Source of the DNA: a virus
Taxonomy: Duplodnaviria > Caudoviricetes
Direction: 5' to 3' (one strand)
IMG/VR virus record: IMGVR_UViG_3300045580_000103
Coordinates: 1-26,034 of that record
Length of the DNA stretch: 26,034 nucleotides
The translations under genes and the position numbers were made by a program. The notes beneath the pieces are model-generated. The model was not told the DNA's origin. It ran no database searches and was given only the letters and a program-made list of their open reading frames with translations. The first letter of the stretch is position 1, and each line of letters starts with the position of its first letter. Below, piece by piece: positions 98 through 26,034 of the stretch.

Positions 98-694
98 ATG
101 CACACACCCGAGATCGAGACCGACATCCCGTTGGCCGACTACCCCCCGACATTCGAGGACCTGCGGTCCCGGGTCGACGCTGCCTTTGCCGCGCTCACCA
201 CTCTGGGGTACGACGTCGAGGTCACCGATGCCGACATCACGGCAGCGCGGGAAGTGGCCACGGGCGCCAAGCGCCCCTCCGACATCCTGCTGTCCTCCCC
301 GGGCACAGTGGTGCACCTCAAGGCCATCCTGAGCGAGTACGACAAGGCCGTGGTCGAGTCCTCGGCCCAGATCCGCACCTACGTCACCAACAAGCTGATC
401 GTCGAGTCCACCAACCCCGACCCGCGCATCCGCATCAAGGCCCTGGAGATGCTGGGCAAGATCAGCGACGTCGGGCTGTTCACGGAGAAGACCGAGATCA
501 CCATGCGGCACCGGCCGACGGAGGAGCTCGAGCAGCTGCTGCGTGAGCGCCTGATGAAGACCATCGAGGCCGAACCGGTTGTGCGCCCCGCGTACGAAGA
601 CCCTGCGGCCCCCCACGCGCTGGACACCAGCCTGCTGGACACCCTTGGCCCCCTGGACGACGCAGACGATGGCCCTGCCAATCTCGCCAGCTGA
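98..694 (+). CDS. Putative terminase small subunit / conserved phage protein upstream of TerL
   Basis: 198 aa with strong GC3 codon bias, helical (DPRIRIKALEMLGKISDVGLF). It directly precedes and overlaps TerL. Function is inferred from position. Confidence 0.55.
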   Translation: MHTPEIETDIPLADYPPTFEDLRSRVDAAFAALTTLGYDVEVTDADITAAREVATGAKRPSDILLSSPGTVVHLKAILSEYDKAVVESSAQIRTYVTNKLIVESTNPDPRIRIKALEMLGKISDVGLFTEKTEITMRHRPTEELEQLLRERLMKTIEAEPVVRPAYEDPAAPHALDTSLLDTLGPLDDADDGPANLAS

Positions 695-3194
695 GATCGA
701 CGCGCTGCTCGCGCGCATGACCCCCGAGAAAATGGCCGAGACCCTGGCCATGCTGGAGGAGCTCGACACCCGCAAGCGGCTCGCCGCGGCGCGCGAGGAC
801 TTCCTGGCCTTCATCGCCCTGCTCGACAGCACCTACAAGTTCGGCACCCACCTCAAACGCCTGGGCCGGCTGCTGATGGACGTGGAGGCAGACACCAAAG
901 ACCGGGTTGCCGTGTCGATGGCCCCGCGTTTTGGTAAGTCCCAGATGATCTCGGTGCTCTACCCGGCGTGGTACCTGGGCCGGCACCCCGACCACAAGGT
1001 GATCGTGGCCTCGCACACTGCCGATCTGGCCGTGGACATGGCCCGAAAAGTGCGGAACCTGATGCAGACGGCCGAATACCGCAAGATTTTCCCCGATGTG
1101 AGCATCGCAGGCGACGCGAAAGCGGCCGGAAAGTGGAACACGAACAAGGGCGGCGAGTATTACGCCGTCGGCGTGGGCGGTGCCCTGGCCGGTCGTGGCG
1201 GTCACCTGATCATTGTGGACGATCCGCTGTCCGAACAGGACATCAAAAACGGCAATTTCGCCCAATTGGAAGTGGTTTACGAGTGGTTCCGCACCGGTTT
1301 GCGCACTCGTCTCATGCCCAACGGCAAAATCGTCGTTTTGCACACGCGCTGGCACATGCGCGACCTGATCGGGCGCCTTATCAAGGACGGCGCCCTCAAT
1401 TCGGACACTGATCAGTACGAAATGTTCGAATTTCCGGCCATTTTGGGCGAGGATTCGGACAATCCGAAGTCGCTGTGGCCCGAACAGTGGTCTCTGGAGT
1501 CCCTGCTGCGCACGAAAGCATCGATGCCGTTGTGGCAATGGAACGCACAGTACATGCAGAACCCCACTGCTGCCGAAAGTGCGATGATCAAGCGCGAGTG
1601 GATTCAGTGGTGGCCCCACGAAAACCCTCCAGACGTCGAATTTATCGTGCAGGGCTGGGACACGGCCCTGACCGCCAAGCAGCGCTCCGACTGGTCTGTG
1701 TGCCACACCTGGGGGGTGTGGACAACCGAGGAGGGGGAGACCCATGCGATCCTGCTGAACTCGGCCAAGGGCAAGTGGGAGTTCCCCGAGCTCAAACAGG
1801 CCGCGTTCGAGCAGTACAACATGTGGCAGCCCGACGCCCTGGTGATCGAGACCAAGGCCAGTGGCCAGCCGCTGGTCGACGAGCTGCGCCGCTCGGGGAT
1901 CTTCGTGACCGAGTTCAGCCCGGGCAAGGGCAACGACAAGGTCGCGCGGGTCAACTCGGTGGCCGACATGTTCAGCGCCGGGCATGTGTGGTTCCCCGAG
2001 ACCTCGTGGGCCCAGGCCACCGTCGAGGAGATCGTGAGCTTCCCGGTGGGCGAGCACGACGACGAGTGCCTCGTGGCGGGCACACGCATCACCATGGCAG
2101 ACGGCACCGAGCGGCCGATCGAGCAGGTGAAGGTAGGGGACTTCGTTGCAACCCCTTTTGGGCCCCGCGAGGTGACTTACGCGGCCTGCACGGGGGTACA
2201 CCCTGTCCGCACCGTGGCGGGGTTGACCGGTACTGAGAACCACCCGGTGGCCACCGCGAGAGGGTGGGTACCCTTGTGGCAGCTTACCCCGGAGGATGAT
2301 ATACTTACTGTATCTACAGTTAAGGAGTCATCATGGCTTTTCCCCGCATCCCAGGAATTCGCGTCGAGTCCGTCGTGTTCAACGGGTACAAATACAACCG
2401 GTACCCAGATTCCCCTAGCAAGCCCCATCGGGTGTATTTCACTCGAACGGGCGGGCAATCGCTGCATCGCGCCATATGGGAAGCGGCCCACGGGCCCGTA
2501 CCTCCTGGCTACCATGTCCATCACTTGGATGGAAACCCCGACAACAACACCCTCGACAACCTCGCCTGTGTGTCTAAGCAAGAGCACGCCGCGGAGCATG
2601 CCGACGCGCGCCGGGAGCTTGGGAGATCTCCTGCGCATCAAGAGCACCTACGACAGGTGCGCGAAGCCGCCGCACTGTGGCATAAGTCCGACGAGGGGCG
2701 GGCTTGGCACCGAGAGCACGCCAAGCGAACCCTCGACGCCGCCCGCGCCGCCCGTAAGCACTCCGTGCAACGCCCCTGCCGATGCACGGAGTGCGGAGGC
2801 ACGTTTCTTGCGCGCTCTCCCAAGGCCAAGCACTGCAGCCCAAAATGCCAGCAGGCGCGAAACGCCCGCGTTGCTAAGGCCGCATCCCTCGCCCAACGTA
2901 TTGGCTACACCTGCGCCCATTGCGGTGGCGTATTTACCGCCGCAACCACAGCGCAAAAATTCTGTGGGCCCCAGTGCAAAAACGCCTACGGAAACGCTAG
3001 AAAGCGCGCTCGTATACAACTTGAGCGTGGCGGAGGTTGAGTGCTACTTCGCCAATGGGGTTTTGGTACACAACTGTGACGCCATGACACTGTGCCTGCG
3101 CCGCGTCCGAACCGGCGGACTGTTGCGGCTCTCGACAGACCAGGAGGATAATGAGGCCTTCACGCGGTCGCGTCGCCGACGGGCCTATTATTGA
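669..3194 (+). CDS. terL: Terminase large subunit containing an intein
   Basis: Walker A-like MAPRFGKS, Walker B LIIVDDP, coupling motif LHTRWH, and nuclease motifs QGWDTA, IETKASG and HDDE|CD (split by the intein). ATG 669 (MALPISP) is preferred over the track start at 579, which lies deep in the upstream gene. Confidence 0.95.
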   Translation: MALPISPAEIDALLARMTPEKMAETLAMLEELDTRKRLAAAREDFLAFIALLDSTYKFGTHLKRLGRLLMDVEADTKDRVAVSMAPRFGKSQMISVLYPAWYLGRHPDHKVIVASHTADLAVDMARKVRNLMQTAEYRKIFPDVSIAGDAKAAGKWNTNKGGEYYAVGVGGALAGRGGHLIIVDDPLSEQDIKNGNFAQLEVVYEWFRTGLRTRLMPNGKIVVLHTRWHMRDLIGRLIKDGALNSDTDQYEMFEFPAILGEDSDNPKSLWPEQWSLESLLRTKASMPLWQWNAQYMQNPTAAESAMIKREWIQWWPHENPPDVEFIVQGWDTALTAKQRSDWSVCHTWGVWTTEEGETHAILLNSAKGKWEFPELKQAAFEQYNMWQPDALVIETKASGQPLVDELRRSGIFVTEFSPGKGNDKVARVNSVADMFSAGHVWFPETSWAQATVEEIVSFPVGEHDDECLVAGTRITMADGTERPIEQVKVGDFVATPFGPREVTYAACTGVHPVRTVAGLTGTENHPVATARGWVPLWQLTPEDDILTVSTVKESSWLFPASQEFASSPSCSTGTNTTGTQIPLASPIGCISLERAGNRCIAPYGKRPTGPYLLATMSITWMETPTTTPSTTSPVCLSKSTPRSMPTRAGSLGDLLRIKSTYDRCAKPPHCGISPTRGGLGTESTPSEPSTPPAPPVSTPCNAPADARSAEARFLRALPRPSTAAQNASRRETPALLRPHPSPNVLATPAPIAVAYLPPQPQRKNSVGPSAKTPTETLESALVYNLSVAEVECYFANGVLVHNCDAMTLCLRRVRTGGLLRLSTDQEDNEAFTRSRRRRAYY
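2297..2327 (+). promoter_or_regulatory. Candidate internal promoter (extended -10) and RBS for the nested HNH gene
   Basis: TGaTATACT at 2297-2305 lies in an AT-rich patch inside the intein coding sequence. AAGGAG at 2322-2327 is 5 nt before ATG 2333. Confidence 0.6.
2333..3040 (+). CDS. HNH homing endonuclease with two C-terminal Cys4 zinc-binding repeats, nested out of frame inside the intein
   Basis: HNH_3-type motif LHRAIWEAAHGPVPPGYHVHHLDGNPDNNTLDNL. Zinc repeats CTECGGTF...CSPKC and CAHCGGVF...CGPQC. It has a strong RBS and lies in a different frame from TerL. Confidence 0.92.
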   Translation: MAFPRIPGIRVESVVFNGYKYNRYPDSPSKPHRVYFTRTGGQSLHRAIWEAAHGPVPPGYHVHHLDGNPDNNTLDNLACVSKQEHAAEHADARRELGRSPAHQEHLRQVREAAALWHKSDEGRAWHREHAKRTLDAARAARKHSVQRPCRCTECGGTFLARSPKAKHCSPKCQQARNARVAKAASLAQRIGYTCAHCGGVFTAATTAQKFCGPQCKNAYGNARKRARIQLERGGG

Positions 3195-3204
3195 GGATTG
3201 ACCC

Positions 3205-5685
3205 ATGATTGACAAAAGCGTCTACTCCGCCCCCACCGGGCTCGCACCCGAGGGCGCCGAGCTCGAGATCGAGATCGTAAATCCAGACCTCGTCACGCTC
3301 GACGACGGCAGCGTGGAGATCACCCTGGAGCCGGGCGGGGAGGACGACGACTCGGAGGTCGGGTTCGACGCGAACCTTGCGGCGCACATCGACGAGGGGG
3401 TGCTCGCTGAGCTGGCCTCGGAGCTGGTCTCCCTGGTGGAGGCAGACATCAACAGCCGCAAGGACTGGGCCGACACCTACGTCAAGGGGCTGGAGGTGCT
3501 GGGTCTCAAGTACGAGGAGCGCACCGAGCCCTGGCAGGACGCCTGCGGCGTGTACTCCACCGTGCTGGCCGAGGCGGCGATCCGCTTCCAGGCCGAGACC
3601 ATGAGCGAGACGTTCCCGGCCGCCGGCCCGGTCAAGACCAAGATCCTGGGCAAAGAAACCCGCGAGAAGGTCGAGGCGGCCACCCGCGTGCGCGAGGACA
3701 TGAACTACCAGCTCACCGAGACCATGGTGGAGTACCGCCCGGAGCACGAGCGCATGCTCTACTCCCTGGGCCTCGCCGGTTCGGCGTTCAAGAAGGTCTA
3801 CGAGGACCCCACCATGGGCCGCCAGACCGCGGTGTACATCCCGGCCGAGGACGTCATCGTGCCCTACGGCGCGTCCAACATCGAGTCGGCCGAGCGCGTC
3901 ACCCACATCATGCGCAAGACCAAGAACGAGATGCTGCGCCTGCAGGCCAGCGGGTTCTACGTCGAGTGCGACCTGGGCGACCCCCTCACGTTCCACAGCG
4001 ACATCGAGAAGAAAAAGGCCGAAGAGGGCGGCTACTCGCTGACCGACGACGACCGCTACTGCGTCTACGAGATCCACGCCAACCTGATCATCGAAGGCCT
4101 GGACGAAGAGGACGAGGGAGCGCACCTGCCCAAGCCCTATGTGGTGACCATCGACCGCGGCACGAACACCGTGCTGGCCCTGCGCCGCAACTGGCATGAA
4201 GACGACGAGCTCATGGCCAAGCGCAACCACTTCGTGCACTACGTCTACGTGCCGGGGTTCGGGTTCTACGGCCTGGGCCTGATCCACATCATCGGTGGCT
4301 ACGCGCGCGCCGGCACAAGCCTGATCCGCCAGCTGGTCGACGCCGGCACGCTGAGCAACCTGCCCGGCGGCCTGAAGTCCCGTGGCATGCGGATCAAGGG
4401 CGACGACACCCCCATCTCCCCGGGCGAGTTCCGCGACGTGGACATCCCCTCGGGCACGGTGCGCGACAACATCATGCCCCTGCCGTACAAAGAGCCGAGC
4501 CAGACCCTGCTGGCCCTGCTCAACCAGATCACGGAAGAGGGTCGTCGCCTGGGCGCCATCAGCGACATGAACATCAGCGACATGTCGGCGCAGGCCCCGG
4601 TGGGCACCACCCTGGCCCTGCTGGAGCGCACGCTCAAGCCCATGGCCGCGGTCCAGGCGCGCGTGCACTACGCGATGAAGCTCGAGTTCAAGCTGCTCAA
4701 GGCGCTGATCGCGGCCAACGCCCCCGAGGCGTACGACTACGAGCCCGACGTGGGCCCGGCGCGCGCCCGGCGCGCGGACTACGAGATGGTCGAGGTCATC
4801 CCGGTCAGCGACCCCAACAGCTCGACCATGGCCCAGCGCGTGGTCCAGTACCAAGCGGTGATCCAGCTGTCGCAGACCGCGCCGCAGATTTACGACCTCC
4901 CGCAGCTGCACCGGCAGATGATCGAGGTGCTCGGCGTGAAGAACGCCGACAAACTCGTGCCCATCGACGACGACATGAAGCCGCGCGATCCGGTCTCGGA
5001 GAACATGGCGTTCCTCAACGGCAAGCCAACCAAGGCGTTCATCTACCAGGACCACGATGCCCACATCGCGGTGCACACCGCGCTGCTCCAGGACCCGCTG
5101 GTCATGGCGCAGGTCGGCCAGAACCCCCAGGCCCAGAAGATGATGGGCGAGATCATGGCCCACATCAGCGAGCACTTGGCGTTCGCCTACCGCCGCAAGA
5201 TCGAGGAGCAGCTGGGCGTGCCCCTGCCGCCGCCCGACGAGGAGCTGCCGGAGGAGGTCGAGGTCAACCTCTCGCGCATGGTGGCCCAGGCCGCGCAGCA
5301 GGTCCTGCAGCAGAGCAAAGGACAGGCCGCCCAGCAGCAGGCGCAGCAGGCGGCGCAGGACCCGATGGTCCAGATCCAGCAGGCCGAGCTGCAGCTCAAG
5401 CAAGCCGAGATCCAGCGCAAGCAGCAGAAGGACATGGCCGACGCCCAGCTCAAGGCCGCCAAGCTGGCCCTGGACCAGCGCAAACAGGTCGCCGACGAAG
5501 AGCTGCGCGAGCAGAGCAACGTGGTCGACGCGTACCGGGCGGGCGTCATGGGCCGCTCGGCCGACGCACAGCTGCTGCGCGAGGACCGCGAGTCCGCCAT
5601 GGAGGTCGCGCGCGCCCTCCAGGAGCGCAACACCAACAACGCCCTGGGCGAGTCCGGCCGACCCGACACAGGAGCTGCTGAATGA
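3205..5685 (+). CDS. Portal protein
   Basis: 826 aa directly after TerL, with GAGG upstream. It has a GFGFYGLGL motif and a Q-rich C-terminal coiled coil like P22-type barrel portals. Confidence 0.88.
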   Translation: MIDKSVYSAPTGLAPEGAELEIEIVNPDLVTLDDGSVEITLEPGGEDDDSEVGFDANLAAHIDEGVLAELASELVSLVEADINSRKDWADTYVKGLEVLGLKYEERTEPWQDACGVYSTVLAEAAIRFQAETMSETFPAAGPVKTKILGKETREKVEAATRVREDMNYQLTETMVEYRPEHERMLYSLGLAGSAFKKVYEDPTMGRQTAVYIPAEDVIVPYGASNIESAERVTHIMRKTKNEMLRLQASGFYVECDLGDPLTFHSDIEKKKAEEGGYSLTDDDRYCVYEIHANLIIEGLDEEDEGAHLPKPYVVTIDRGTNTVLALRRNWHEDDELMAKRNHFVHYVYVPGFGFYGLGLIHIIGGYARAGTSLIRQLVDAGTLSNLPGGLKSRGMRIKGDDTPISPGEFRDVDIPSGTVRDNIMPLPYKEPSQTLLALLNQITEEGRRLGAISDMNISDMSAQAPVGTTLALLERTLKPMAAVQARVHYAMKLEFKLLKALIAANAPEAYDYEPDVGPARARRADYEMVEVIPVSDPNSSTMAQRVVQYQAVIQLSQTAPQIYDLPQLHRQMIEVLGVKNADKLVPIDDDMKPRDPVSENMAFLNGKPTKAFIYQDHDAHIAVHTALLQDPLVMAQVGQNPQAQKMMGEIMAHISEHLAFAYRRKIEEQLGVPLPPPDEELPEEVEVNLSRMVAQAAQQVLQQSKGQAAQQQAQQAAQDPMVQIQQAELQLKQAEIQRKQQKDMADAQLKAAKLALDQRKQVADEELREQSNVVDAYRAGVMGRSADAQLLREDRESAMEVARALQERNTNNALGESGRPDTGAAE

Positions 5686-9303: not shown

Positions 9304-9332
9304 TTGCGGCCTGGGGCCAGAATAGGTACATT
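9304..9332 (+). promoter_or_regulatory. Candidate promoter for the free-standing HNH gene
   Basis: TTGCGG (9304-9309), 17-nt spacer, TACATT (9327-9332). GGAG at 9351-9354 precedes ATG 9361. Confidence 0.55.
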
Positions 9333-9360
9333 ACCTGTTACTAAATCTCTGGAGCCGCAC

Positions 9361-9987
9361 ATGGACGTATTGAACCTGCCCAAGACCCGCGCTGAAGCAA
9401 AAGCCCTTGGGGCCAAGTATTACTTCACAGGGGAGCCCTGCAAGCACGGGCACATCGCGCCTCGCAAGACCAAAGGGGCGTGCGTGGAGTGCCTGAAGGA
9501 AGAATGGCGCCGCGGGGCAGAGACCCGAGCTGAGTATTTTGCGGCGTACAACCGCCGCACGGAGGTCGTAGAGCGCAAGCACGACTGGTACATGGAGAAC
9601 CGTGACGCCGTAGTAGCCCGCGCACAAACCACCCCCCAGGAGTTGAAGCGGCAGTACCGGAAGGCGTGGGAGCGCCGAAACGCAGACGCGATCCGCGCGA
9701 ACAACAAAGTGCGCCGCCGCAAGCACCGGCAGGCCACTCCGGCGTGGCTCACACGGATGCAGAAGTCGGAGATACGCGCGCTGTATCAGGCCGCCATTGT
9801 GTCCAGCCGGGCTACAGGGGAGGCGTACGTTGTCGACCACATCTACCCCCTGCGGTCCGATGTTGTGTGCGGGCTGCATGTCCCGTGGAATTTGCGCATC
9901 ACGACGCAGCGGGAGAACCTGGAGAAGTCCAACAAACTGCCGAGCGACGACGAAGCGCTTGCGTTCCCAACCCCCCGAGTGATATAG
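9361..9987 (+). CDS. Free-standing HNH endonuclease
   Basis: N-terminal YFTGEPCKHGH...CVEC zinc motif and C-terminal VVDHIYPL...CGLHVPWNL...EN..KSN HNH motif. Start set at ATG 9361 because of its RBS. Confidence 0.88.
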   Translation: MDVLNLPKTRAEAKALGAKYYFTGEPCKHGHIAPRKTKGACVECLKEEWRRGAETRAEYFAAYNRRTEVVERKHDWYMENRDAVVARAQTTPQELKRQYRKAWERRNADAIRANNKVRRRKHRQATPAWLTRMQKSEIRALYQAAIVSSRATGEAYVVDHIYPLRSDVVCGLHVPWNLRITTQRENLEKSNKLPSDDEALAFPTPRVI

Positions 9988-10529: not shown

Positions 10530-10838
10530 ATGGGTATGCAAACCGATGTCGTCGCCAGCGGCGTACAGACCTCAACCGGCCAGCTGCAGACCGCGGCCGG
10601 CACAGGCGCGCTTGCGCGCGCTCGGGTCAAGTCCATCCTGATCATCCCCGCGGCCGGCGCCGGCACGGTGGTGTTCCGCGACGGCGGAGCCAGCGGCCCT
10701 GTCAAGATGACGGTGCCCACCCTGGCGGCCTCCACGAGCGCCAGCTACACGCTGCTCCCGGGTGAGGGTGTCCTGTTCCAGAACGACGTCCACGTCACGC
10801 TGACGGGCGTCACCTCCGTGATGGTGTTCTATGCCTAA
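10530..10838 (+). CDS. Conserved small beta-rich virion protein
   Basis: GAGGAG RBS. MGMQTDV start and LPGEGVLF motif. Confidence 0.75.
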   Translation: MGMQTDVVASGVQTSTGQLQTAAGTGALARARVKSILIIPAAGAGTVVFRDGGASGPVKMTVPTLAASTSASYTLLPGEGVLFQNDVHVTLTGVTSVMVFYA

Positions 10839-11082
10839 GACCCCAGCCTGGACCCGCAAGGAAGGCAAGGACCCCAAGGGCGGCCTCAACGCCAAGGGCC
10901 GCGCGTCGGCCAAGGCGCAGGGCATGAACCTGAAGCCGCCGGCTCCGAAGCCGAAGACCCCCAAAGACGCCGCGCGGCGCAAATCGTTCTGTGCCCGCAT
11001 GGGCGGAATGCCGGGGCCCATGAAAGACGAGAAGGGCAAGCCCACCCGCAAGGCGCTGTCCCTGAAGGCTTGGAACTGCTGA
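10831..11082 (+). CDS. Small basic conserved phage protein
   Basis: AWTRKEGKDPKGGLNAKGRAS...RRKSFCARM...KAWNC, overlapping the upstream stop. Confidence 0.8.
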   Translation: MPKTPAWTRKEGKDPKGGLNAKGRASAKAQGMNLKPPAPKPKTPKDAARRKSFCARMGGMPGPMKDEKGKPTRKALSLKAWNC

Positions 11083-11092
11083 AGGGGCGAGG

Positions 11093-11338
11093 ATGACTGT
11101 GCAGGAATTGTTGCTTGGGGCTTTGTACATCGGGGGTGCGATTGTGGGTTGGTTTTTGAAAGACGCCATCGACAGCGCCAAGAACACGAAAGACGCTCTG
11201 GCCGACTTCAAGACCGAAGTGGCCAAGGAATACGTGCCGCGAAACGACATGCGAGAGCTCCAGGTCGAGGTCGGCCGACGGTTTGACCGCCTCGAAGAGA
11301 AGCTCGACCGGTTGGTGGAGCGCAACCATGCCCAGTAA
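11093..11338 (+). CDS. Small membrane protein (one TM helix plus coiled coil)
   Basis: Hydrophobic N-terminus LLLGALYIGGAIVGWFL and C-terminal RFDRLEEKLDRL. Confidence 0.7.
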   Translation: MTVQELLLGALYIGGAIVGWFLKDAIDSAKNTKDALADFKTEVAKEYVPRNDMRELQVEVGRRFDRLEEKLDRLVERNHAQ

Positions 11339-11480
11339 GACCCCGGCGCAAGCCCGGTTCATGCAAGCTGTGGCGAACAGCCCCAAATTCGCCAAGAAGG
11401 TGAAGGTCCCGGCCAAGGTCGGGAAAGAGTTCGTAGCGGCCGACAAGGCCAAACCCAAGGCGCGAAGGAGCCCGAAATGA
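11328..11480 (+). CDS. Small basic phage protein
   Basis: GGAG RBS then ATG 11328 (MPSKTPAQARFMQAVANSPKFAKKVKVP). The track start at 11283 is probably too early. Confidence 0.75.
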   Translation: MPSKTPAQARFMQAVANSPKFAKKVKVPAKVGKEFVAADKAKPKARRSPK

Positions 11481-11665
11481 TGAACGAGATGAAAGCCATG
11501 AAGAAATCCGGCCGCGGCATGGCGAAGGCCGACATGCAGAAGCCCGCAGCCTACAAAAAGGGCGGCTCGGTGGGCAGCGCGTCGAAGCGCGCCGACGGCA
11601 TCGCCAAAAAGGGCAAGACGAACACCAAGATGGTGGCGATGGCCCGCGGCGGCAGCTGCAAGTAA
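11477..11665 (+). CDS. Small basic protein with xxGG motifs
   Basis: AAGGAG RBS and ATGA overlap. Motifs YKKGGSV, RADGIAKKGKT and MARGG. Confidence 0.75.
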   Translation: MMNEMKAMKKSGRGMAKADMQKPAAYKKGGSVGSASKRADGIAKKGKTNTKMVAMARGGSCK

Positions 11666-11676
11666 GGAGCCCTGGC

Positions 11677-12396
11677 ATGGCGACCTCCGATTTTGGCCGC
11701 GCATTCGCGGCTGCACGCAAGGCCGGCAAGAAAGACTTCGAGCACGGCGGCAAGAAATTCAGCACCGAGACTCGGGAGGAGAAGTCCTCCCGCGTCGGCA
11801 AGGCCGTGTCTGACAAATCGGACGCCATGCGGGGCGCCTCGCGGGCGGCCACTGCCCCGGCAGCCAAAGCCGGTGCAGACAAGCGCCGCAAGGCCGCTGC
11901 AGACGCCAAGTTCGCCGCCAGCGTCGGCGACTACGTTCGCTCCCGCTCGGCGGAGCGCGACCGCAAAGAGAAGCTGGGGCTGGCCATGGACGTAGCCGGC
12001 GCGGCGCTCCCCGCTGCCAAGCTGGCCCAGGGGGCACGCGGGGCGCTTGCGGCGGCCAAAGCCGCCAGAGCCACCCCGTCGATCGGCCCTACCGGCGTGG
12101 CCCGCAAGGTCATGCCGTCGCGCCCTGTGACTCAAGTTGGGCGAAAGACTGGGGTGTCCAGCGACGCGCGCCGTAGCGCGGAGGGGTTCAGCCCGGACGA
12201 AGCCTTGAAGGCGATCGCCAAAAAGGCTCCGGCCAAGTCCGCTCCGGCCAAGTCCGCTCCGGCCAAGTCCGCTCCGGCCAAGTCCGCTCCGGCCAAGTCC
12301 ACGCGGGCCAAAAAGCCGAGCAACCCTCCCCCTGCTGACGACTTCGGCGCGGGCATGCGCCGCGGCGGCAAGGTGGCCAAAAAGAGGTACATCTGA
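11677..12396 (+). CDS. Lys/Ala-rich, histone H1-like putative internal virion protein
   Basis: TAAGGAG RBS. N-terminal FGRAFAAARKAGKKDFEHGGKKFST, APAKS repeats and C-terminal MRRGGKV. Confidence 0.7.
   Translation: MATSDFGRAFAAARKAGKKDFEHGGKKFSTETREEKSSRVGKAVSDKSDAMRGASRAATAPAAKAGADKRRKAAADAKFAASVGDYVRSRSAERDRKEKLGLAMDVAGAALPAAKLAQGARGALAAAKAARATPSIGPTGVARKVMPSRPVTQVGRKTGVSSDARRSAEGFSPDEALKAIAKKAPAKSAPAKSAPAKSAPAKSAPAKSTRAKKPSNPPPADDFGAGMRRGGKVAKKRYI
12226..12300 (+). repeat. 15-bp perfect tandem repeat x5 (GCTCCGGCCAAGTCC, encoding APAKS)
   Basis: Read directly from the sequence. Confidence 0.97.
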
Positions 12397-12671
12397 TGAT
12401 GGCCAGCCGCGGCATGGGTGACATCGCCAAGTCCAAGCGCCCGAAGGTTCTCCGGCGCAAGGACGGCGACAAGTTCGACCTCTACGCCAAGGGCGGCGAG
12501 GTCAAGTCTCGTGTGAACGAGGCTGGCAACTACACCCAGCCCGGCATGCGCAAGCGCCTGTTCGAGAAGATCAAGGCCGGCGCCAAGGGCGGCGACCCCG
12601 GCGAGTGGAGCGCGCGCAAGGCGCAGATGCTGGCGCGCGAGTACAAGGCAGCGGGCGGGGGCTACAAGTGA
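12396..12671 (+). CDS. Small basic conserved phage protein
   Basis: TGATG coupling. MMASRGMGDI, YAKGGEV and GEWSARKAQMLAREYKAAGGGY. Confidence 0.78.
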   Translation: MMASRGMGDIAKSKRPKVLRRKDGDKFDLYAKGGEVKSRVNEAGNYTQPGMRKRLFEKIKAGAKGGDPGEWSARKAQMLAREYKAAGGGYK

Positions 12672-12898
12672 AAGCCCCGCAGCAGTCGCTCAAGGACTGG
12701 ACGGCCCAGAAGTGGCGCACGTCTGACGGCAAGCCGAGCAAGGGCAAGAAACGCTACTTGCCCGACGCTGCCTGGAGCGCGCTGAGCCCCGGCGAGAAGG
12801 CCGCCACCAACCGCGCCAAGGCCGCAGGAAACGCCAAGGGCAAACAGTTCGTTGCGCAACCCAAAAAGGTCGCGAAGAAAGTCGCAAGGTACCGCTGA
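12668..12898 (+). CDS. Small basic conserved phage protein
   Basis: GTGA overlap start (MKAPQQSLKDWTAQKWRT...RYLP...KGKQFVAQP). The track start at 12605 lies inside the previous gene. Confidence 0.75.
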   Translation: MKAPQQSLKDWTAQKWRTSDGKPSKGKKRYLPDAAWSALSPGEKAATNRAKAAGNAKGKQFVAQPKKVAKKVARYR

Positions 12899-13590
12899 TG
12901 GCCACGTCTGGCACCACGCTGTTCAACATGGAGTTCACCGACATCGCCGAAGAGGCGTGGGAGCGGGCCGGGCGCGAGATGCGCTCGGGCTACGACCTGC
13001 GCACGGCGCGGCGGTCGATGAACCTCATGACGATCGAGTGGCAAAACCGAGGCATCAATATGTGGACGATCGACGAGGGGTCGATCAACCTCGTCCAAGG
13101 GCAGGCCGAGTACGAGCTGCCGGCCGACACGATCGATCTGCTCGAGCACGTCATCCGTACCGGTGCAGGCAACGAGTCCACGCAGGCCGATCTGAACATC
13201 AGCCGAATCAGCGTCTCCACCTACTCGACCATCCCCAACAAGCTGACCCAGGGCCGCCCCATCCAGTTGTGGGTCGAGCGCCTGCGCGACGCGCCGAAGG
13301 TCACCGTGTGGCCGGTCCCCAACCAGAGCGACTTCTACGTGCTGCGGTACTGGCGCCTGCGGCGCATCGAGGACGCCGGCACCGGGGTGAACACCGCGGA
13401 CGTTAACTTCCGCTTCCTGCCCTGCCTTGTGGCCGGGCTGGCGTACCACATTGCCATGAAGGTGCCGGAGCTCGCTGATCGCCTGCCCCTGCTCAAGGCC
13501 GAGTACGACCTGCAGTGGGACCTCGCGGCCGGCGAGGACCGCGAGAAGGCCCCGGTCCGCTTCGTGCCGCGCATCATGAGGGCTCGCTGA
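12898..13590 (+). CDS. Putative head-tail adaptor / head completion protein
   Basis: 230 aa with a helical N-terminus (ARRSMNLMTIEWQNRG), a beta insertion and a helical C-terminus (FLPCLVAGLAYHIA). Position fits. Confidence 0.65.
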   Translation: MATSGTTLFNMEFTDIAEEAWERAGREMRSGYDLRTARRSMNLMTIEWQNRGINMWTIDEGSINLVQGQAEYELPADTIDLLEHVIRTGAGNESTQADLNISRISVSTYSTIPNKLTQGRPIQLWVERLRDAPKVTVWPVPNQSDFYVLRYWRLRRIEDAGTGVNTADVNFRFLPCLVAGLAYHIAMKVPELADRLPLLKAEYDLQWDLAAGEDREKAPVRFVPRIMRAR

Positions 13591-14151: not shown

Positions 14152-14835
14152 ATGAACTACGCGGGCGCTGGTTATGTTTACGCTATCACCAATACGGTGA
14201 ATGGGCGGCAATATATCGGCAGCACCGTCAACTACAAGCAGCGTTGGGGCGACCATCGACGCATGCTTCGGCGGGATACGCATCATTCGTTTGTTTTACA
14301 GCGCGCGTGGAACAAATATGGCGAGGCCGCGTTCAAATTTGAATTGCTCGTCGTGTGCCCCAAAGAGCTCCGAGTGGAATACGAGAACCGGCTCATGGCC
14401 ACGCGGACATATAACGTGCTCCGCACGGCGCGGGAGGCAATCGTACGCAGGGGGCGCCGTCATTCGGAGGCCACCAAATCAAAGATGTCCGCGGCACACA
14501 AAGGTAAGGTTTTCTCCGCGGAGTGGCGCGCGAATATGGCCGACGCCGCACGCCGACGAATGTACGACGCCGAGTTCAGCCGCAAAGCGAGCGAGCGGCA
14601 GCGCGGGGTTACTCCATCTGCGCAGACCCGGGCGCGCCTTTCCGCCGCGGTAACGGCCGCGAGAGCCGCGGAAGCCGCACACACCCGGGGTTTGGTGCAT
14701 AAAATATACCTGAAAGCGGCGCAAGGCGGTAAAATTGGGGAACTCTGCGGAATCTACGGGATAACCACGACCACGTTCTACAAGCACTGCCGCGATCTCG
14801 GGCTGCCTAACTTGAAACAGAGGCTGAAAACATGA
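14152..14835 (+). CDS. GIY-YIG homing endonuclease with NUMOD3-like repeats
   Basis: YVYAITNTVNGRQYIGS, LQRAWNKYGEAAFKFELL, HSEATKSKMSAAHKGK and PSAQTRARLS. Codon usage is less GC-biased than in flanking genes. Confidence 0.9.
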   Translation: MNYAGAGYVYAITNTVNGRQYIGSTVNYKQRWGDHRRMLRRDTHHSFVLQRAWNKYGEAAFKFELLVVCPKELRVEYENRLMATRTYNVLRTAREAIVRRGRRHSEATKSKMSAAHKGKVFSAEWRANMADAARRRMYDAEFSRKASERQRGVTPSAQTRARLSAAVTAARAAEAAHTRGLVHKIYLKAAQGGKIGELCGIYGITTTTFYKHCRDLGLPNLKQRLKT

Positions 14836-15475: not shown

Positions 15476-16228
15476 GTGAAATACGGTGTCGTGTACGTAG
15501 TGACAAATACCGAGACGGGCAAACAGTACGTTGGCTTGACTACGGTTGGACTTGCGCGGCGCTGGGCGAATCACGTGACTCACGCCAGGGCGCCAAAAAC
15601 GCGCCTCCATAAAGCGATAGCCAAGTACGGGGCGGCGGCTTTTTGCGTGGCGGAATACGCCAGCGCGGTCAAAAAAGAACTCTTAGCCCAACTGGAAAAA
15701 GACGTTATCGTACAGCTCGCACCAGCGTACAATCAGACAAGCGGCGGCGAGGTTACGTTCGGTAGAAAGTACGACGACGCCACGAAGGAGCGTATTCGCC
15801 TAAGTAATACCGGCAAGAAACGCACCGCGGAGCAGCGCGAACGAAACCGGCAGCAAAAGTTGGCGTGGTTTGCACAACACCCGGAACGGCGGGGCGCCGT
15901 GGCAACTCAATTGGCCGAGGCTAGATCGCGGGTAGACGTGGAAAAGCGCAAAAAAGCCGCTGGCGACGCCGCCCGAAATAGGGTGTGGTCGGAGGAGTCC
16001 AGGGCCAAGCTACGCGCGGCGTGTATGGGGCGGCGGTATAGTGAGGAGGTCATTTCAAAGATGGCTGAGTCGAAAAAACGAAAAATTCGGTGCGATACCA
16101 CGGGGGTGGTGTACTCTTGCAGAACCGAGGCTGCTGAACTGACGGGCGTATCTGAGCGCTCCATTCAGCGAGTTTGCGGCGGTAGGTACCCTTCCGTTAA
16201 AGGGTTAGAATTTTCTTACGTAAGGTGA
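15476..16228 (+). CDS. Second GIY-YIG homing endonuclease (NUMOD3-like repeats, NUMOD1-like C-terminal HTH)
   Basis: AGGAGG RBS and GTG start. VVYVVTNTETGKQYVG, LHKAIAKYG, YNQTSGG, SEESRAKL and C-terminal YSCRTEAAELTGVS...I.RVC. Confidence 0.9.
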   Translation: MKYGVVYVVTNTETGKQYVGLTTVGLARRWANHVTHARAPKTRLHKAIAKYGAAAFCVAEYASAVKKELLAQLEKDVIVQLAPAYNQTSGGEVTFGRKYDDATKERIRLSNTGKKRTAEQRERNRQQKLAWFAQHPERRGAVATQLAEARSRVDVEKRKKAAGDAARNRVWSEESRAKLRAACMGRRYSEEVISKMAESKKRKIRCDTTGVVYSCRTEAAELTGVSERSIQRVCGGRYPSVKGLEFSYVR

Positions 16229-16660: not shown

Positions 16661-17635
16661 GTGGCTTCGTCTGTTGAATACGGAGGATGGGGCTCAGTCC
16701 CGTGGGGTGAGGGCTCCTGGGGGCTCAACCTCACCAAGGTATTCGTAGACGGGGCCCAGGCTGCCGGTGCCGTCGGCACGCTGACGGTCCGAGCAGGCGC
16801 GAAGGCTTACCCGACGGGGGTCCAGGCCGCTGGTACAGTCGGGACCGTGACGGTCCGGGCCAAGGCTACGGCTCCACTCACAGGCGTCCAAGCCACGGGC
16901 GCGGTCGGGACCGTGACGGTCCGGGCCAAGGCTACGGTTCCGCTCACGGGGGTCCAGGCCGCTGGTGCAGTCGGCACGCTGACTGTCCGCGCAGGCGCGA
17001 AGGCCTACCCGACGGGGGTCCAGGCCGCTGGTGCAGTCGGCACGCTGACGGTCCGCGCAGGCGCGAAGGCCTACCCGACGGGGGTCCAGGCCGCTGGCGC
17101 AGTCGGGACTGTAGCGGTCACTGGCACGGCAACGGTTCCGCTCACAGGCGTCCAAGCCACGGGCGCGGTCGGGTTTGCGGCGGTAACCGCCGCGGCGGTT
17201 GTTCCCGTCACTGGCGTCGAAGCGCAGACCCAACTGGGCTCCGTTGTGGCCACTGCCGGGGCCCAGGTGTACCCGCTGGGCGTGGCCGCCCAAGGGCAGA
17301 CCGGGGCGCTTGACGCCACCGGCACCGCGGTCGTTCCGCTCACCGGGGTCGTTGCCCAGGCGCAGCTTGGCGATGTCGAGGTGTTCCTCTCGATCCAGAT
17401 CCTGGTCGAGGGGGTTCAGGCGCAGACCCAGCTCGGCAGCGTAGCGGTGACGGCCGGGGCCCAGGTGTACCCTGCGGGGGTGCAAGCGACGGGCTACGCG
17501 GGCTTCGCGCTCGTCTGGGGCCAGATAGATGACAACCAGACGCCGGACTGGCAGAATGTAGGGGGTTCGCCGGCCACTATGTGGACCCCGGTTGCAGATT
17601 CACAAAATCCCGATTGGCAGCGCATCGCTGCGTAG
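16661..17635 (+). CDS. Repetitive fibre-like structural protein
   Basis: GTG start after TAAGG. N-terminal GW repeats, about 11 copies of a 22-aa TGVQAxGxVGTxTV unit, and C-terminal Trp repeats. Confidence 0.75.
   Translation: MASSVEYGGWGSVPWGEGSWGLNLTKVFVDGAQAAGAVGTLTVRAGAKAYPTGVQAAGTVGTVTVRAKATAPLTGVQATGAVGTVTVRAKATVPLTGVQAAGAVGTLTVRAGAKAYPTGVQAAGAVGTLTVRAGAKAYPTGVQAAGAVGTVAVTGTATVPLTGVQATGAVGFAAVTAAAVVPVTGVEAQTQLGSVVATAGAQVYPLGVAAQGQTGALDATGTAVVPLTGVVAQAQLGDVEVFLSIQILVEGVQAQTQLGSVAVTAGAQVYPAGVQATGYAGFALVWGQIDDNQTPDWQNVGGSPATMWTPVADSQNPDWQRIAA
16750..17500 (+). repeat. 66-bp degenerate tandem repeat array
   Basis: For example GACGGGGGTCCAGGCCGCTGG recurs at 16813, 17011 and 17077 (spacings 198 and 66). 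Boundaries are approximate. Confidence 0.9.
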
Positions 17636-17644
17636 AGGTAACAC

Positions 17645-19822
17645 ATGGCGAGCAGCTACACCCCCCTCCTCCGTTTGACCCTGCCGACTACCGGCGAGCT
17701 TCAGGGCACTTGGGGCGACACCGTCAACAACGGCATCACTTCGCTGACCGAGGCCGCGATCGCGGGGACCGCGGCGATCGTGATGTCTGACGCCAACCAC
17801 ACGCTGACGGTGGCCAACGGCGCGACCGACGAGGCGCGGCGCATGTTCGTGACCCTGACCGGTGCGTTGACCGCCACGCGCAACGTCATCTGCCCGGCTG
17901 TGAGCAAGATGTACGTGGTGCGCAACAACACCACGGGCGGCCAGTCGATCGTGTTCAAGACCTCCGCGGGCACCGGGATCACGGTGGCCAACGGCCAATC
18001 CGCGCTGCTGTACTGCGACGGCACCAACGTGGTCGAGGCGTTCAGTGCGTTCGGGGGCAACGCGGCCACCGCCACTGCACTGCAGACCACCCGCACGCTG
18101 TGGGGCCAGAACTTCAACGGAACGGCCAACGTGACCGGCAACCTGAGCTCGGTCGGCAACATCACGGGCACCGCCAGCGTCACGATCACCGCGACCAACG
18201 GCAGCCTAGGGCTCGCCGCCACAGGCACGGGCAACCCAATCCAACTCTTGACCAACAGCATCGAGCGCATGCGCATCGACAGCGCGGGCAACGTGGGCAT
18301 CGGGACGACCTTGGCTGCTTCGCCGGGGTTGGCCCTCGCAGACAGCCTGAACATTAATTTTGCGGAAGTTGCCGGCGCAAGCTACGCCAACATCTTCCGA
18401 CAAGCAAACTCTGCGGATTTGGTTCTTGGTAGTGGGGTTCGGTACTCGTCCACCGCCAATAGTTTCGCCAGCTCTATCGGCGCGGCCTGGGCGCGCACCG
18501 CCATCAGCGTCGGCTACGGGGCTATAAAGTTCCTCACCGCTCCAGAAGCCGCCATCTCCCCAGGCGCCTCCGCAACACTGAACGAACACATGCGCATCGA
18601 CAGCGCGGGTAAAGTGGGGATTGGGACGAGTTCGCCTGCTACAAAGTTGGATGTAAATGGTGACGGCACATTCCGCAATGGCAACGGTGTGATTGTTGGC
18701 ACGGTATCAAATGCGGCAGGCTGGTTTGATTTTGGCGGTAGCAGTAACGTAAGCGGCGCACAAATGTCGCACGTTAATACGCTGCGATTCTTGACAGCCT
18801 CTACAGAGCGTATGCGCCTCGACTCCTCCGGCAACCTCGGCTTGGGGGTGACGCCGAGTGGTTGGGCGAGCGCATCAAAAGCGTTCCAGATAAAAGGCAC
18901 AGGGTCTTCTATTGATGGGGCTATTTCTGCCGGAAACGGCACAAACGCGCTAGTGGTTAGCAACAATGCTTACTACAACGCGGGATGGAAATACGTTTTT
19001 TCAGGTTCACATCCAGCAGGTCGGTATGACATAGACACCGGCACTCATGCTTGGTACACCGCCCCCTCCGGCACCGCAGGCAATCCCATCTCCTTCACCC
19101 AAGCGATGACGCTGGACGCGAGCGGGAATTTGGGTATTGGGACGAGTTCGCCGACATCCCCCATTCATGTACAGCGTTCCAATGATGGGGTGATAGGAAC
19201 TTTCCGAGGGACATCAAGCGCGCAATTATTGTTGAGTGTTTCTGGCGGTAACCTAATTTACGATGCGTCCAACGGAAATGCAACACACGTTTGGCGAGCC
19301 AACAACACAGAGCGTGCGCGTATCGACGCCAATGGGCGTTTCTTGATTGGCACGACGAACAGTATTGACGGACGTCTGTCCGTCGTGGCAGACACTGGAA
19401 ACTCTGGGTGCATTGCAACAGGTAATAATGGGCTTCCGGTGTACTATCCAGCTTACTTTTACCACGGCGCAAGCTTGGTTGGAAACATCTCCTGCAACAG
19501 CACGAATACCGCGTACACCACCTCCTCCGACTACCGCCTGAAGGAAAACATCCAAGACGTTACCGGCTCTGGCGCGTTCATCGACGCCTTGCAGCCGCGC
19601 ACTTGGAACTGGAAGGTGAACGGCTCTGTTGGCACGGGCTTCATTGCTCACGAGTTGCAGACTGTGTCGCCGTCGTCGGTGACGGGCACCAAAGACGCAG
19701 TGGACGCCGAAGGCAGGCCGGTGTATCAGGCGGTTGAGTACGGCTCTGCTGAGGTGATTGCCATGCTGGTGGCAGAAGTGAAATCGCTACGGCAACGCAT
19801 CACCGCACTGGAGGCCAAATGA
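17645..19822 (+). CDS. Tail fibre with C-terminal intramolecular chaperone (peptidase S74-like)
   Basis: GAGGT RBS. N-terminal GELQGTWGDTVN anchor, five ERMRIDSxGNxGIG-type repeats, SDYRLKENI autocleavage motif, GFIAHEL and a terminal coiled coil. Confidence 0.9.
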   Translation: MASSYTPLLRLTLPTTGELQGTWGDTVNNGITSLTEAAIAGTAAIVMSDANHTLTVANGATDEARRMFVTLTGALTATRNVICPAVSKMYVVRNNTTGGQSIVFKTSAGTGITVANGQSALLYCDGTNVVEAFSAFGGNAATATALQTTRTLWGQNFNGTANVTGNLSSVGNITGTASVTITATNGSLGLAATGTGNPIQLLTNSIERMRIDSAGNVGIGTTLAASPGLALADSLNINFAEVAGASYANIFRQANSADLVLGSGVRYSSTANSFASSIGAAWARTAISVGYGAIKFLTAPEAAISPGASATLNEHMRIDSAGKVGIGTSSPATKLDVNGDGTFRNGNGVIVGTVSNAAGWFDFGGSSNVSGAQMSHVNTLRFLTASTERMRLDSSGNLGLGVTPSGWASASKAFQIKGTGSSIDGAISAGNGTNALVVSNNAYYNAGWKYVFSGSHPAGRYDIDTGTHAWYTAPSGTAGNPISFTQAMTLDASGNLGIGTSSPTSPIHVQRSNDGVIGTFRGTSSAQLLLSVSGGNLIYDASNGNATHVWRANNTERARIDANGRFLIGTTNSIDGRLSVVADTGNSGCIATGNNGLPVYYPAYFYHGASLVGNISCNSTNTAYTTSSDYRLKENIQDVTGSGAFIDALQPRTWNWKVNGSVGTGFIAHELQTVSPSSVTGTKDAVDAEGRPVYQAVEYGSAEVIAMLVAEVKSLRQRITALEAK

Positions 19823-24595: not shown

Positions 24596-26034
24596 ACCTG
24601 CTCGACTGGAAACACAAGCTCCTGGGGCGCCCGTACCGTTGCGGCGGTGGCGGGGATTCCGGCTCGGATTCGGATTCGGGGTCGAGCAACGACGCCAACT
24701 GGGGCGATTGGGGTGGCCCTGGCGGGTACCAAGAGGGCAGCTACGACCACGACTCTGGGACCTACTCGGGCGGCAGCTCTGATACCAGTGCGGGGATCGA
24801 CTCCTTTGAATCGGACTGGAATGCGGTGACGAGCGGCGGCCTCACGGCGGCCGAGCAGGCATCTCAAGGCCCTACACCCTCCCCGGACCCGATCGACTCC
24901 TTTGAATCGGACTGGAATGCGGTGACGAGCGGCGGCCTCACGGCGGCCGAGCAGGCATCTCAAGGCCCTACACCCTCCCCGGACCCGATCGACTCCTTTG
25001 AGGCGGACTGGAATGCGGTGACGAGCGGCGGCCTCACGGCGGCCGAGCAGGCATCTCAAGGCCCTACACCCTCCCCGGACCCGATCGACTCCTTTGAGGC
25101 GGACTGGAATGCGGTGACGAGCGGCGGCCTCACGGCGGCCGAACAAGCCGCGCAAGCGGAGCAGTCTGGCGGAGCCCCTCCAGACCGGGACACTCTCGCA
25201 GCGGCCCGCGCGGACGCGCTCATGTCGGCGTTTCCTGGGCTCTCTCGAGAAGACGCGATGGCGCTCGGGTATGTTGGGGTAACCCCTGAGGCCCAGAAAG
25301 CGTACGGCAAGGATTTCGGGTTTGGTATGCACAGCCCAGGACTCGACTTCGCGACCCTTGGTCTGCTCGACCAGCTCGGGTTTGGCGGCGTGGACCTGGG
25401 GTCGTTCGGGTATGCGAACCAGACGGTGGACCAAGCGCTGGCGTCCAAGGCCGCGTCGGACTACCTTGGCCGGAACGTCGGCACCTTGATGGGGACTTTG
25501 GTCGGGAACCCCGCGCTGGGGGCCCTGGTGCAGTCGTTCGCGGATCTTGGGCAAGGGCGCCCGGTGGGCGACGTCGTCTCCAATACGATCGCCGGCCTGC
25601 TGTCGCAGCCGCTCAGCGCCGCGCTCGGCCTATCGGTTCCAGCCAGCGCGATCAGCGCCGCAGCCAAGGGGCAGTACGCAGACGCGATCTACAACACCGC
25701 GGTTGCCAATATCGCGAAATCCACGGGCCTGCAGCCCTCCACCATAGCCAGCGCGCTCGATGGGAAGTTCGGCACCGCCCTGGCGCAGCAGCTGACCGGT
25801 GAGCTGGTCCGCGAAACCACGCTCTCACTGTCCAAAGACACCCCCCTCCTTGCGGGGATCGTCGGCCCCATCGCGGCAGCTTTCGGGCGGCCCGTGGGGG
25901 CGCTGATCGGCGAGGTCCTGGGCCCGCTGAACGCCGGAGCCTTCAGCCTGCGGTCGGCTCTCAACAATGCGATCCCGAGCGGCGGCGGCCTTGCCGGGCT
26001 GCTCAACGGGGCCGGGGCCGGATCAGGGCCAGGG
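24592..26034 (+). CDS. Putative internal virion / DNA ejection protein, truncated by the window end and missing from the ORF track
   Basis: ATGA overlap with the GNAT stop. The frame stays open for 481 codons to the window end: MNLLDWKHKLLGRPYRCGGGGDSGSDS..., then 32-aa repeats, then Gly/Ala/Leu-rich glycine-zipper-like helices. Confidence 0.75.
   Translation, partial: MNLLDWKHKLLGRPYRCGGGGDSGSDSDSGSSNDANWGDWGGPGGYQEGSYDHDSGTYSGGSSDTSAGIDSFESDWNAVTSGGLTAAEQASQGPTPSPDPIDSFESDWNAVTSGGLTAAEQASQGPTPSPDPIDSFEADWNAVTSGGLTAAEQASQGPTPSPDPIDSFEADWNAVTSGGLTAAEQAAQAEQSGGAPPDRDTLAAARADALMSAFPGLSREDAMALGYVGVTPEAQKAYGKDFGFGMHSPGLDFATLGLLDQLGFGGVDLGSFGYANQTVDQALASKAASDYLGRNVGTLMGTLVGNPALGALVQSFADLGQGRPVGDVVSNTIAGLLSQPLSAALGLSVPASAISAAAKGQYADAIYNTAVANIAKSTGLQPSTIASALDGKFGTALAQQLTGELVRETTLSLSKDTPLLAGIVGPIAAAFGRPVGALIGEVLGPLNAGAFSLRSALNNAIPSGGGLAGLLNGAGAGSGPG
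24795..25142 (+). repeat. 96-bp near-perfect tandem repeat, about 3.6 copies
   Basis: ATCGACTCC begins at 24796, 24892, 24988 and 25084. The unit encodes IDSFE(S/A)DWNAVTSGGLTAAEQASQGPTPSPDP. Confidence 0.97.

Follow-up and report, generated by a model that had tools for sequence, protein, structure and literature searches.

An HNH nuclease gene overprinted on a terminase intein of a tailed phage, and a family of related nested nucleases

The stretch of DNA analyzed here, called the window below, comprises positions 1 to 26,034 of the IMG/VR virus record IMGVR_UViG_3300045580_000103 and represents a tailed phage, of which this 26-kb fragment is estimated to cover 42%. It carries a gene for the large terminase subunit (terL, product TerL) that contains an intein, and within the intein coding sequence, in another reading frame, lies a gene for an HNH nuclease. 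The TerL precursor of 841 amino acids is encoded in a single frame on the plus strand (669..3194, from the ATG at 669 to the stop at 3194), as are all features described below unless stated otherwise, and the predicted spliced product has 505 amino acids. It matches Pfam Terminase_6N and 6C and is 42–46% identical to TerL of DSL-LC04 and of the Pelagibacter phages HTVC023P and HTVC027P.

The intein of 336 amino acids (2067..3074) occupies residues 467–802 of the precursor and is inserted at HDDE|CD, close to where the RNase H-like nuclease domain of TerL ends. The residues for class 1 intein splicing are present, namely C1, the TxxH motif, the terminal HN pair and Cys+1. The N-terminal splicing region (2067..2243) extends from C1 (2067–2069, motif CLVAGT) to T56-E-N-H59 of block B (T56/H59, 2232–2243), and the C-terminal region (3012..3077) contains blocks F and G, from V316 to H335-N336 and with the block F motif VYNLSV, followed by Cys+1 of the C-extein (3075–3077). 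C1, T56, H59 and N336 are invariant in an alignment of 22 inteins. A first-pass annotation, made from the letters alone, had proposed an intein with intact splicing blocks in one frame with TerL, and with these residues in place and 669–3194 free of stops this proposal stands. In an AlphaFold model of the intein, residues 1–80 and 311–336 have a predicted local distance difference test score (pLDDT) above 90, and the model matches the HINT fold of the Mtu RecA intein (2IMZ) with a Z-score of 17.2 and a root mean square deviation of 1.9 over 116 aligned residues. Residues from about 89 to 308 mostly have a pLDDT below 50, so that some 220 low-confidence residues are looped out.

No nuclease family was found by Pfam in the intein frame between blocks B and F, and the arrangement is not that of a canonical full intein. 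The intein frame across the overlap consists of 15% proline, 12% serine, 12% threonine and 11% alanine. The serine-, threonine- and proline-rich composition that had been noted earlier is real, and the +1 frames of ordinary genes in the window are equally rich (serine, threonine, proline and alanine together 0.49–0.60); the richness results from C at third codon positions. A functional domain in this middle part was considered and rejected, in view of these similar +1 frames, a ratio of nonsynonymous to synonymous substitution rates (dN/dS) of at least 1, and the disordered model.

The nested gene (2333..3040) is in frame 3 relative to the intein and encodes 235 amino acids; its stop codon falls inside block F, 34 nucleotides (nt) before the intein end. 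A Shine-Dalgarno-like AAGGAG (2322..2327) is located 5 nt before its ATG. The catalytic core (residues 44–86, 2462..2590) matches HNH_3 with an E-value of 5.9e-19 and 67.9 bits against a cut-off of 24.8, the sole Pfam match of the protein. Among aligned relatives H63, H64, N76 and H85 are invariant and N72 and H89 nearly so; the invariance of the motif AWHREHAK is partly built in, because this motif seeded the searches. The first Cys4 motif (C151/C154/C168/C172, 2783..2848) is invariant in 30 aligned proteins and the second (C194/C197/C211/C215, 2912..2977) is missing from many relatives. A complete HNH open reading frame (ORF) with two Cys4 motifs, its own ribosome-binding site and ATG, and a stop in block F is therefore present, as the first-pass annotation described it. 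The predicted structure (mean pLDDT 91.6) consists of the nuclease core, three helices and the two Cys4 motifs. The closest solved structure is that of I-HmuI (1U3E), an intron-encoded enzyme, over nuclease residues 15–93. The window protein differs from it by having His at two places, where I-HmuI has Asp (the first residue in the DH pair) and Asn (the final position of the motif), and a long helical part and the Cys4 repeats replace the I-HmuI C-terminal domain. Foldseek gave no match for the window nuclease at an E-value of 0.001 or better, and a wide structure search was filled by helix matches and barely covered the helical and Cys4 parts.

Since the window is a metagenomic virus record that is 42% complete, assembly errors might have shifted an in-frame endonuclease out of frame. 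The indel check that had been proposed was done with assembled contigs of the runs X3, X5, X6 and X17 rather than with raw reads; the window DNA occurs in freshwater and drinking-water DNA runs, and no RNA run is among those listed, which carries no weight for or against expression. Two X3 contigs, covering 2175–3017 and 3005–3632, show no differences and no gaps relative to the window, and the pieces listed from X5, X6 and X17, of which some carry substitutions, cover portions of the intein. The sole indels listed in the four runs are a one-base loss at 2760 and a one-base gain at 2764 in X5 and X6 variants, which together restore both frames. With identical contigs in other runs, a layout that is common to 57 viral loci and three cultured phages, and selection that is frame-specific, the dual-frame layout is real and a frameshift artefact is excluded; the chance that such errors created the layout is negligible. 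Among the listed joints of the four runs none skips 2067–3074, as an empty allele of the same phage would, and the contigs show presence only. Models that took their codon usage from the nuclease genes, or that shuffled codons, gave a probability of about 0.003–0.1 that the intein frame of the window is open by chance, and a model with core-gene codon usage gave 0.68 (GC-rich sequence). Given these figures the window alone is weak evidence, and the family is strong evidence.

The related nuclease is nested in an intein in 57 of 60 viral loci, with 56 of the genes in frame 3 and one (L053, gene at 177–689) in frame 2. In the 56 loci the frame one base to the right of the nuclease is fully open and forms part of a long ORF, in which intein ends are present wherever the contig extends to them; as for the other three, L058 ends at a contig edge and L059 and L060 are distant and not nested. 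All of 14 host ORFs scanned with Pfam matched Hint or intein models, and 10 matched terminase models. The listed junctions lie 21–77 residues from the C-terminus of the host protein, at or adjoining the same D/H-x-D motif, and the family occupies neighbouring positions of this one TerL motif (HDDx|CD, HDD|CxD, DA|CT, DA|CRY). The nested form is also hidden under the annotated terL of the cultured phages TJE1, phiCDHM19 and Highwayman. Among 59 loci in prokaryote genomes, the intein frame is open over the match in 13 of the best 18, and the remaining 41 loci match over a short stretch at the HNH core. A profile search yielded 1,228 clusters at 50% identity with an E-value of 1e-30 or better. 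The best 150 representatives have a median length of 222 amino acids, and among them there is no complete in-frame intein fusion and none with an intein C-half; one, P0095, is fused in frame to an intein N-half only.

Free-standing relatives adjoin terminase genes as well, following terL in PAE1, SN1 and EauM-23 and preceding terS in BP10. The free-standing BP10 gene and the nested Highwayman gene are sisters (support 99/96), and the frame-2 gene of L053 is sister to the frame-3 gene of L055 (99/93), which suggests, as far as the tree goes, a frame switch or a separate entry. Repeated independent invasions were considered and not adopted: the deep tree is unresolved and a single clade of the four free-standing relatives is not rejected (p-value of the approximately unbiased test (p-AU) 0.11).

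Selection acts differently on the two frames. By a simple counting method applied to 15 pairs, dN/dS of the nuclease frame was 0.07–0.32 in 10 pairs (five were saturated) and that of the intein frame 1.07–1.71 in all 15, with changes mostly at third positions of nuclease codons. Synonymous recoding of 27 diverse sequences would be expected to give 134 stops in the intein frame and none was seen, which, with the 57 nested loci, bears out the expectation that homologues keep both frames open. The third frame contains 0–34 stops per sequence, usually more than the 2–9 that the model expects in the intein frame, and free-standing relatives carry 1–12 stops in the frame equivalent to the intein frame. 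The comparison of dN/dS by frame thus gave purifying selection in the nuclease frame and a relaxed intein frame in which stops are avoided. These data show a nuclease protein that is selected for its sequence and an intein frame that is selected only for staying open; together with the model, they show an intein middle that drifts in sequence as a predicted disordered loop, with its frame kept free of stops. Frame 3 may be the commonest arrangement because it is the cheaper frame to keep open.

The distribution of the element over closely related terL genes is patchy. The site is reached in 38 of 39 close terL loci, 34 of which are empty and four filled, and the filled alleles and the window do not form one clade (p-AU 3.9e-6), with four changes on the terL tree. 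It had been assumed that the target site corresponds to the rejoined flanks of a filled allele. This is incorrect: position +1 of the 34 natural empty alleles is Val in 29, Thr in three, Met in one and Cys in only one (L077), so that Cys+1 is missing in 33 of the 34, and any of Cys, Ser or Thr in 30. The filled locus L064 encodes nearly the same protein as the empty loci L082 and L067. Their DNA differs at +1, +2, +6, +10, +11 and +12 and is then identical for about 150 nt, and the tract changes Val+1 to Cys+1. This looks like a recent homing event, with a short conversion tract that would have replaced Val+1 by Cys+1, a conversion that matters since 33 of the 34 empty alleles lack Cys there. 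Locus L063 contains a sister mini-intein of 140 amino acids that is 70% identical to the window intein over aligned columns, and keeps the ribosome site, the ATG and about 23 nuclease codons in an intact terL; judged by these sequence remnants it is a deletion product of the full form and not its ancestor. A tblastn search with the mini-intein against cultured phages gave distant matches only, in nine records.

An ATG (rarely GTG) and a Shine-Dalgarno-like site precede most of the nuclease relatives. In the window a sigma-70-like promoter site is predicted within the intein coding sequence (2276..2305, GTGGCA-18-TATACT, with TG before the -10 box), and promoter scores of at least 10 were found upstream of 12 of 26 related starts, compared with 2 of 260 control windows. 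An RNA hairpin is predicted at 2304..2324. Its 3' arm overlaps the ribosome site where this begins, and an RNA that was initiated at the promoter-like site would be without the 5' arm. For 14 elements the predicted accessibility of the ribosome site increases from 0.31 on the long message to 0.64 on the short transcript, against 0.45 to 0.47 for 25 window genes that served as controls. The promoter-like site and the hairpin are likely control elements of the nuclease. The same control scheme was described for T4-type homing endonucleases (PMC2988022) and for the nucleases of fractured genes (PMC2677866). On the minus strand, a promoter-like TTGTCA-17-AATAAT (10/12) at 3187–3215 points toward the end of terL and the nested gene; it may be due to chance.

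We consider it likely that the intein with its class 1 splicing residues and the overprinted HNH gene are two parts of one homing element. The dual-coding selfish element proposed in the first-pass annotation fits the selection on both frames, the patchiness, the conversion tract and the conserved translation signals. Since TerL is essential and the splicing residues are conserved, the 841-residue precursor would excise the 336-residue intein by the standard Cys1/Asn336/Cys+1 route to give TerL of 505 residues. Translation of the nuclease would begin at a ribosome site of its own, probably for the most part on a short transcript initiated at the promoter inside the intein, and on the long terS–terL message this site would be partly hidden in the hairpin. 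Enzymes of the I-HmuI type nick DNA, and in a mixed infection the nuclease would nick the empty terL allele near the HDDx|VD codons. Repair would then copy the intein with a few flanking bases, by which the Cys+1 that most empty alleles lack would be installed, and when homing no longer pays, in-frame deletion of the nuclease may leave a mini-intein. It is likely that the element originated when a free-standing, terL-linked HNH gene entered a mini-intein at the TerL site. Such an origin, which had been suggested before, is plausible because free-standing relatives adjoin terminase genes; the suggestion that the present form is an intermediate is only partly borne out, as the nested layout is not transient and persists across nucleases that are as little as 30% identical.

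Several observations weigh against this reading or parts of it. The promoter score is below 10 for 14 of the 26 related starts and zero for four of these, and the signal is partly tied to the protein, because the -35-like TTGA often spans a conserved Asp codon of the intein. The gain in ribosome-site accessibility in the window itself is small (0.28 to 0.40); the 14 elements of the hairpin test are mostly better promoter scorers and partly kin, and the controls come from one GC-rich genome. We infer nicking rather than cutting with reserve, because the match with I-HmuI is modest (profile E-value 0.0035, Foldseek E-value 0.034, Z-score 5.8 over 72 residues). Upstream of the site, L064 and L082 show a background difference of about 6%, which makes the 5' end of the tract unplaceable. 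Furthermore, the tree contains five filled alleles that do not represent a single element (the L064 nuclease is only 27% identical, L091 is cut off), so that patchiness shows gains or losses at the site but not their direction. Finally, as a single clade of free-standing relatives is not rejected, repeated invasion is without support.

The element may also be viewed in other ways. The HNH protein could be an independent free-standing parasite that resides in a mini-intein and cuts elsewhere in or near terL, the intein being dragged along by co-conversion. Its own expression signals, the interspersed free-standing and nested kin such as the BP10/Highwayman sisters, and the presence of the family at several neighbouring positions of the same TerL motif would agree with this, and T4 enzymes of the free-standing kind cut at sites distant from the genes that encode them (PMC2988022). 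However, conversion in L064 extends for just some 12 nt on the 3' side, pointing to a break that lay at the junction or 5' of it, and the window, L001 and L063 share the intein together with the nuclease start, so both travelled together. A cut site far from the intein junction is possible, and the parasite scenario as a whole is rather unlikely.

A role of the HNH protein as a helper in terminase packaging, with the location in the intein serving to keep it linked to terL, is distinctly unlikely on the genomic comparisons made here. Some HNH proteins linked to terminases have been described as having such a role. It would explain why free-standing relatives adjoin terminase genes in four cultured phages and why purifying selection acts on the nuclease frame, and the brucellaphage paper raised a link between terminases and HNH proteins in packaging (PMC4422536). 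On the other hand, a relative is encoded within up to 2.5 kb on either side in just 2 of the 39 close terL loci (L062 and L064, both filled), L063 has lost the nuclease while terL is intact, and phages with near-identical TerL differ in the presence of the nuclease. Very improbable is a scheme in which ribosomes shift from the terL frame to produce the nuclease, or in which the insert is removed at the RNA level. The in-frame fusion of P0095 to an intein N-half, one case among the 150 representatives, would fit it, but a start codon and Shine-Dalgarno-like site precede the gene in most relatives, every protein-splicing residue is kept, and the insert is an exact multiple of three in which stops are selected against, neither of which an RNA intron would need.

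The homing element favoured here has known counterparts. An intein-encoded HNH gene that is out of frame in terL was reported in 2015 for all annotated brucellaphage genomes (PMC4422536), and the Perisivirus Tb record JN939331 (ORF07/ORF08) confirms this layout. In brucellaphage Tb as in the window, a contiguous TerL intein harbours an out-of-frame HNH gene that lies on the same strand and has a ribosome site of its own. Unlike that of the window, which is at the nuclease motif HDDx|CD, the Tb intein is in the ATPase half (GNRAD|C...HN|CVIIDD), and the Tb nested gene is in frame 2 instead of 3. HNH follows the Cys motifs in the Tb protein and precedes them in the window protein, and the two share only 54 residues at 37% identity. 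Gosselin, Arsenault and Gogarten (2025) described actinobacteriophage inteins with EndoVII-like genes in frame 3, antisense LAGLIDADG genes and antisense Vsr-like genes (bioRxiv 10.1101/2025.01.02.630785). Their EndoVII inteins resemble the window intein in being contiguous, with a nuclease ORF on the same strand in frame 3 and an unstructured in-frame middle, and an origin by invasion of a free-standing nuclease was proposed there too. The HNH inteins of that set are in frame, whereas the window nuclease is of the HNH_3 type and not EndoVII-like, and the parts of that study covered here contain no promoter or ribosome-site analysis. With these brucellaphage and actinophage papers, the suspicion that alternative-frame intein nucleases had been seen in other phages proved justified.

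The cyanobacterial dnaX intein with an out-of-frame LAGLIDADG gene (Phillips et al. 2026; bioRxiv 10.64898/2026.09.14.751524) shows the same selection pattern by frame, and its full, mini and empty alleles coexist; unlike the window element it resides in a cellular host gene and has a LAGLIDADG nuclease. The ShiLan domain (Arsenault et al. 2025; PMC11855218) is an HNH that is inserted out of frame into a phage methylase. Its HNH is likewise hidden in a second frame and the host frame is kept open; it differs by having no splicing domain, a non-essential host gene and no detectable ribosome site. Fractured genes (Dassa et al. 2009; PMC2677866), with split inteins and a free-standing nuclease between the halves, resemble the window in that the nuclease gene lies between intein halves, is equipped with a promoter and hairpin, and overlaps the C-half at its 3' end. 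In fractured genes, however, the host gene is split in two and trans-splicing is needed, whereas terL of the window is one read-through frame. The available parts of PMC6293099, PMC7468147 and PMC5418858 do not describe the layout. No published account was found of the nuclease family at the TerL nuclease site, although supplements or subscription journals may hold one, and no publication was found on the inteins of TJE1 or phiCDHM19. The general layout, an out-of-frame nuclease in an intein, is thus already published for brucellaphage terL (2015), actinophages (2025) and dnaX (2026); added here are the mini-intein that arose by deletion, the conversion tract by which Cys+1 is supplied, the free-standing relatives beside terL, and the likely internal promoter with its hairpin switch.

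Other terL genes in the collection carry further insertions. The terL genes of L006, L007 and L029 encode 1,064–1,077 amino acids, and in two of them, L006 and L029, Pfam places a further intein in the ATPase half. Among close terL relatives, L093, L095, L097 and the second insert of L099 have inteins at a second site in the ATPase half of terL, before HN|TRW, with an open frame and a nested frame-3 ORF of about 210–260 amino acids that ends in the motif VDHCH...GKVR.LLC..CN, which looks endonuclease VII-like. In the first insert of L099, frame 2 holds another, different ORF that is nuclease-like. The terL inserts L089:954-2033 and L091:1320-2501 are not spanned by any single frame, and in them intein-like halves surround a nuclease-like ORF of about 290–310 amino acids; these look like fractured genes with split inteins. 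In Clostridium phage phi CD119 (L106, record 778–2595) the phiCDHM19 element is present with frame breaks, due either to decay or to errors in an old record, and terL is annotated in pieces.

In the window, terL is preceded directly by an ORF for a likely small terminase of 198 amino acids (98..694) and followed by one for a likely portal of 826 amino acids (3205..5685); neither has a Pfam match, and the assignments rest on position and, for the portal, size. Three more likely free-standing homing endonuclease genes are found amid head and tail genes (9304–9987, 14152–14835 and 15476–16228), of which two are GIY-YIG with NUMOD3 by Pfam and the remaining one has a C-terminal HNH-like motif and no Pfam match. 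Several small Lys/Arg-rich ORFs lie between capsid and tail genes (10831–12900), among them a basic ORF of 239 amino acids with APAKS repeats (11677–12396). An ORF of 324 amino acids rich in Gly, Ala, Val and Thr, with repeats of about 22 amino acids (16661–17635), precedes a likely tail fibre gene (17645–19822). The ORF at 24601–26034 runs off the end and has a Gly/Ser/Asp-rich start, followed by about four tandem repeats of 32 amino acids (DPIDSFESDWNAVTSGGLTAAEQASQGPTPSP).

It may be, and we put this forward tentatively, that the element represents an old family of overprinted intein nucleases, large and so far undescribed, whose target is the catalytic HDDxxD motif of phage terminases and in which intein sequence was co-opted as a promoter/hairpin switch. 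If so, homing would be timed apart from TerL synthesis, and the terminase inteins of these phages would stably, and perhaps usually, be built by overprinting rather than by in-frame fusion; many inteins that are listed as decayed would then be active. The element is also a natural example of a gene overprinted on an essential one at little cost, as the part of the protein that is overlapped would be removed by splicing. Counts of mobile versus decayed inteins are likely biased because annotation misses nested nucleases, as in the three cultured phages where they are hidden under terL. TJE1, a cultured phage whose host is non-pathogenic, carries the element, and the free-standing, nested, mini and empty states around a single site make the gain and loss of endonucleases by inteins testable.

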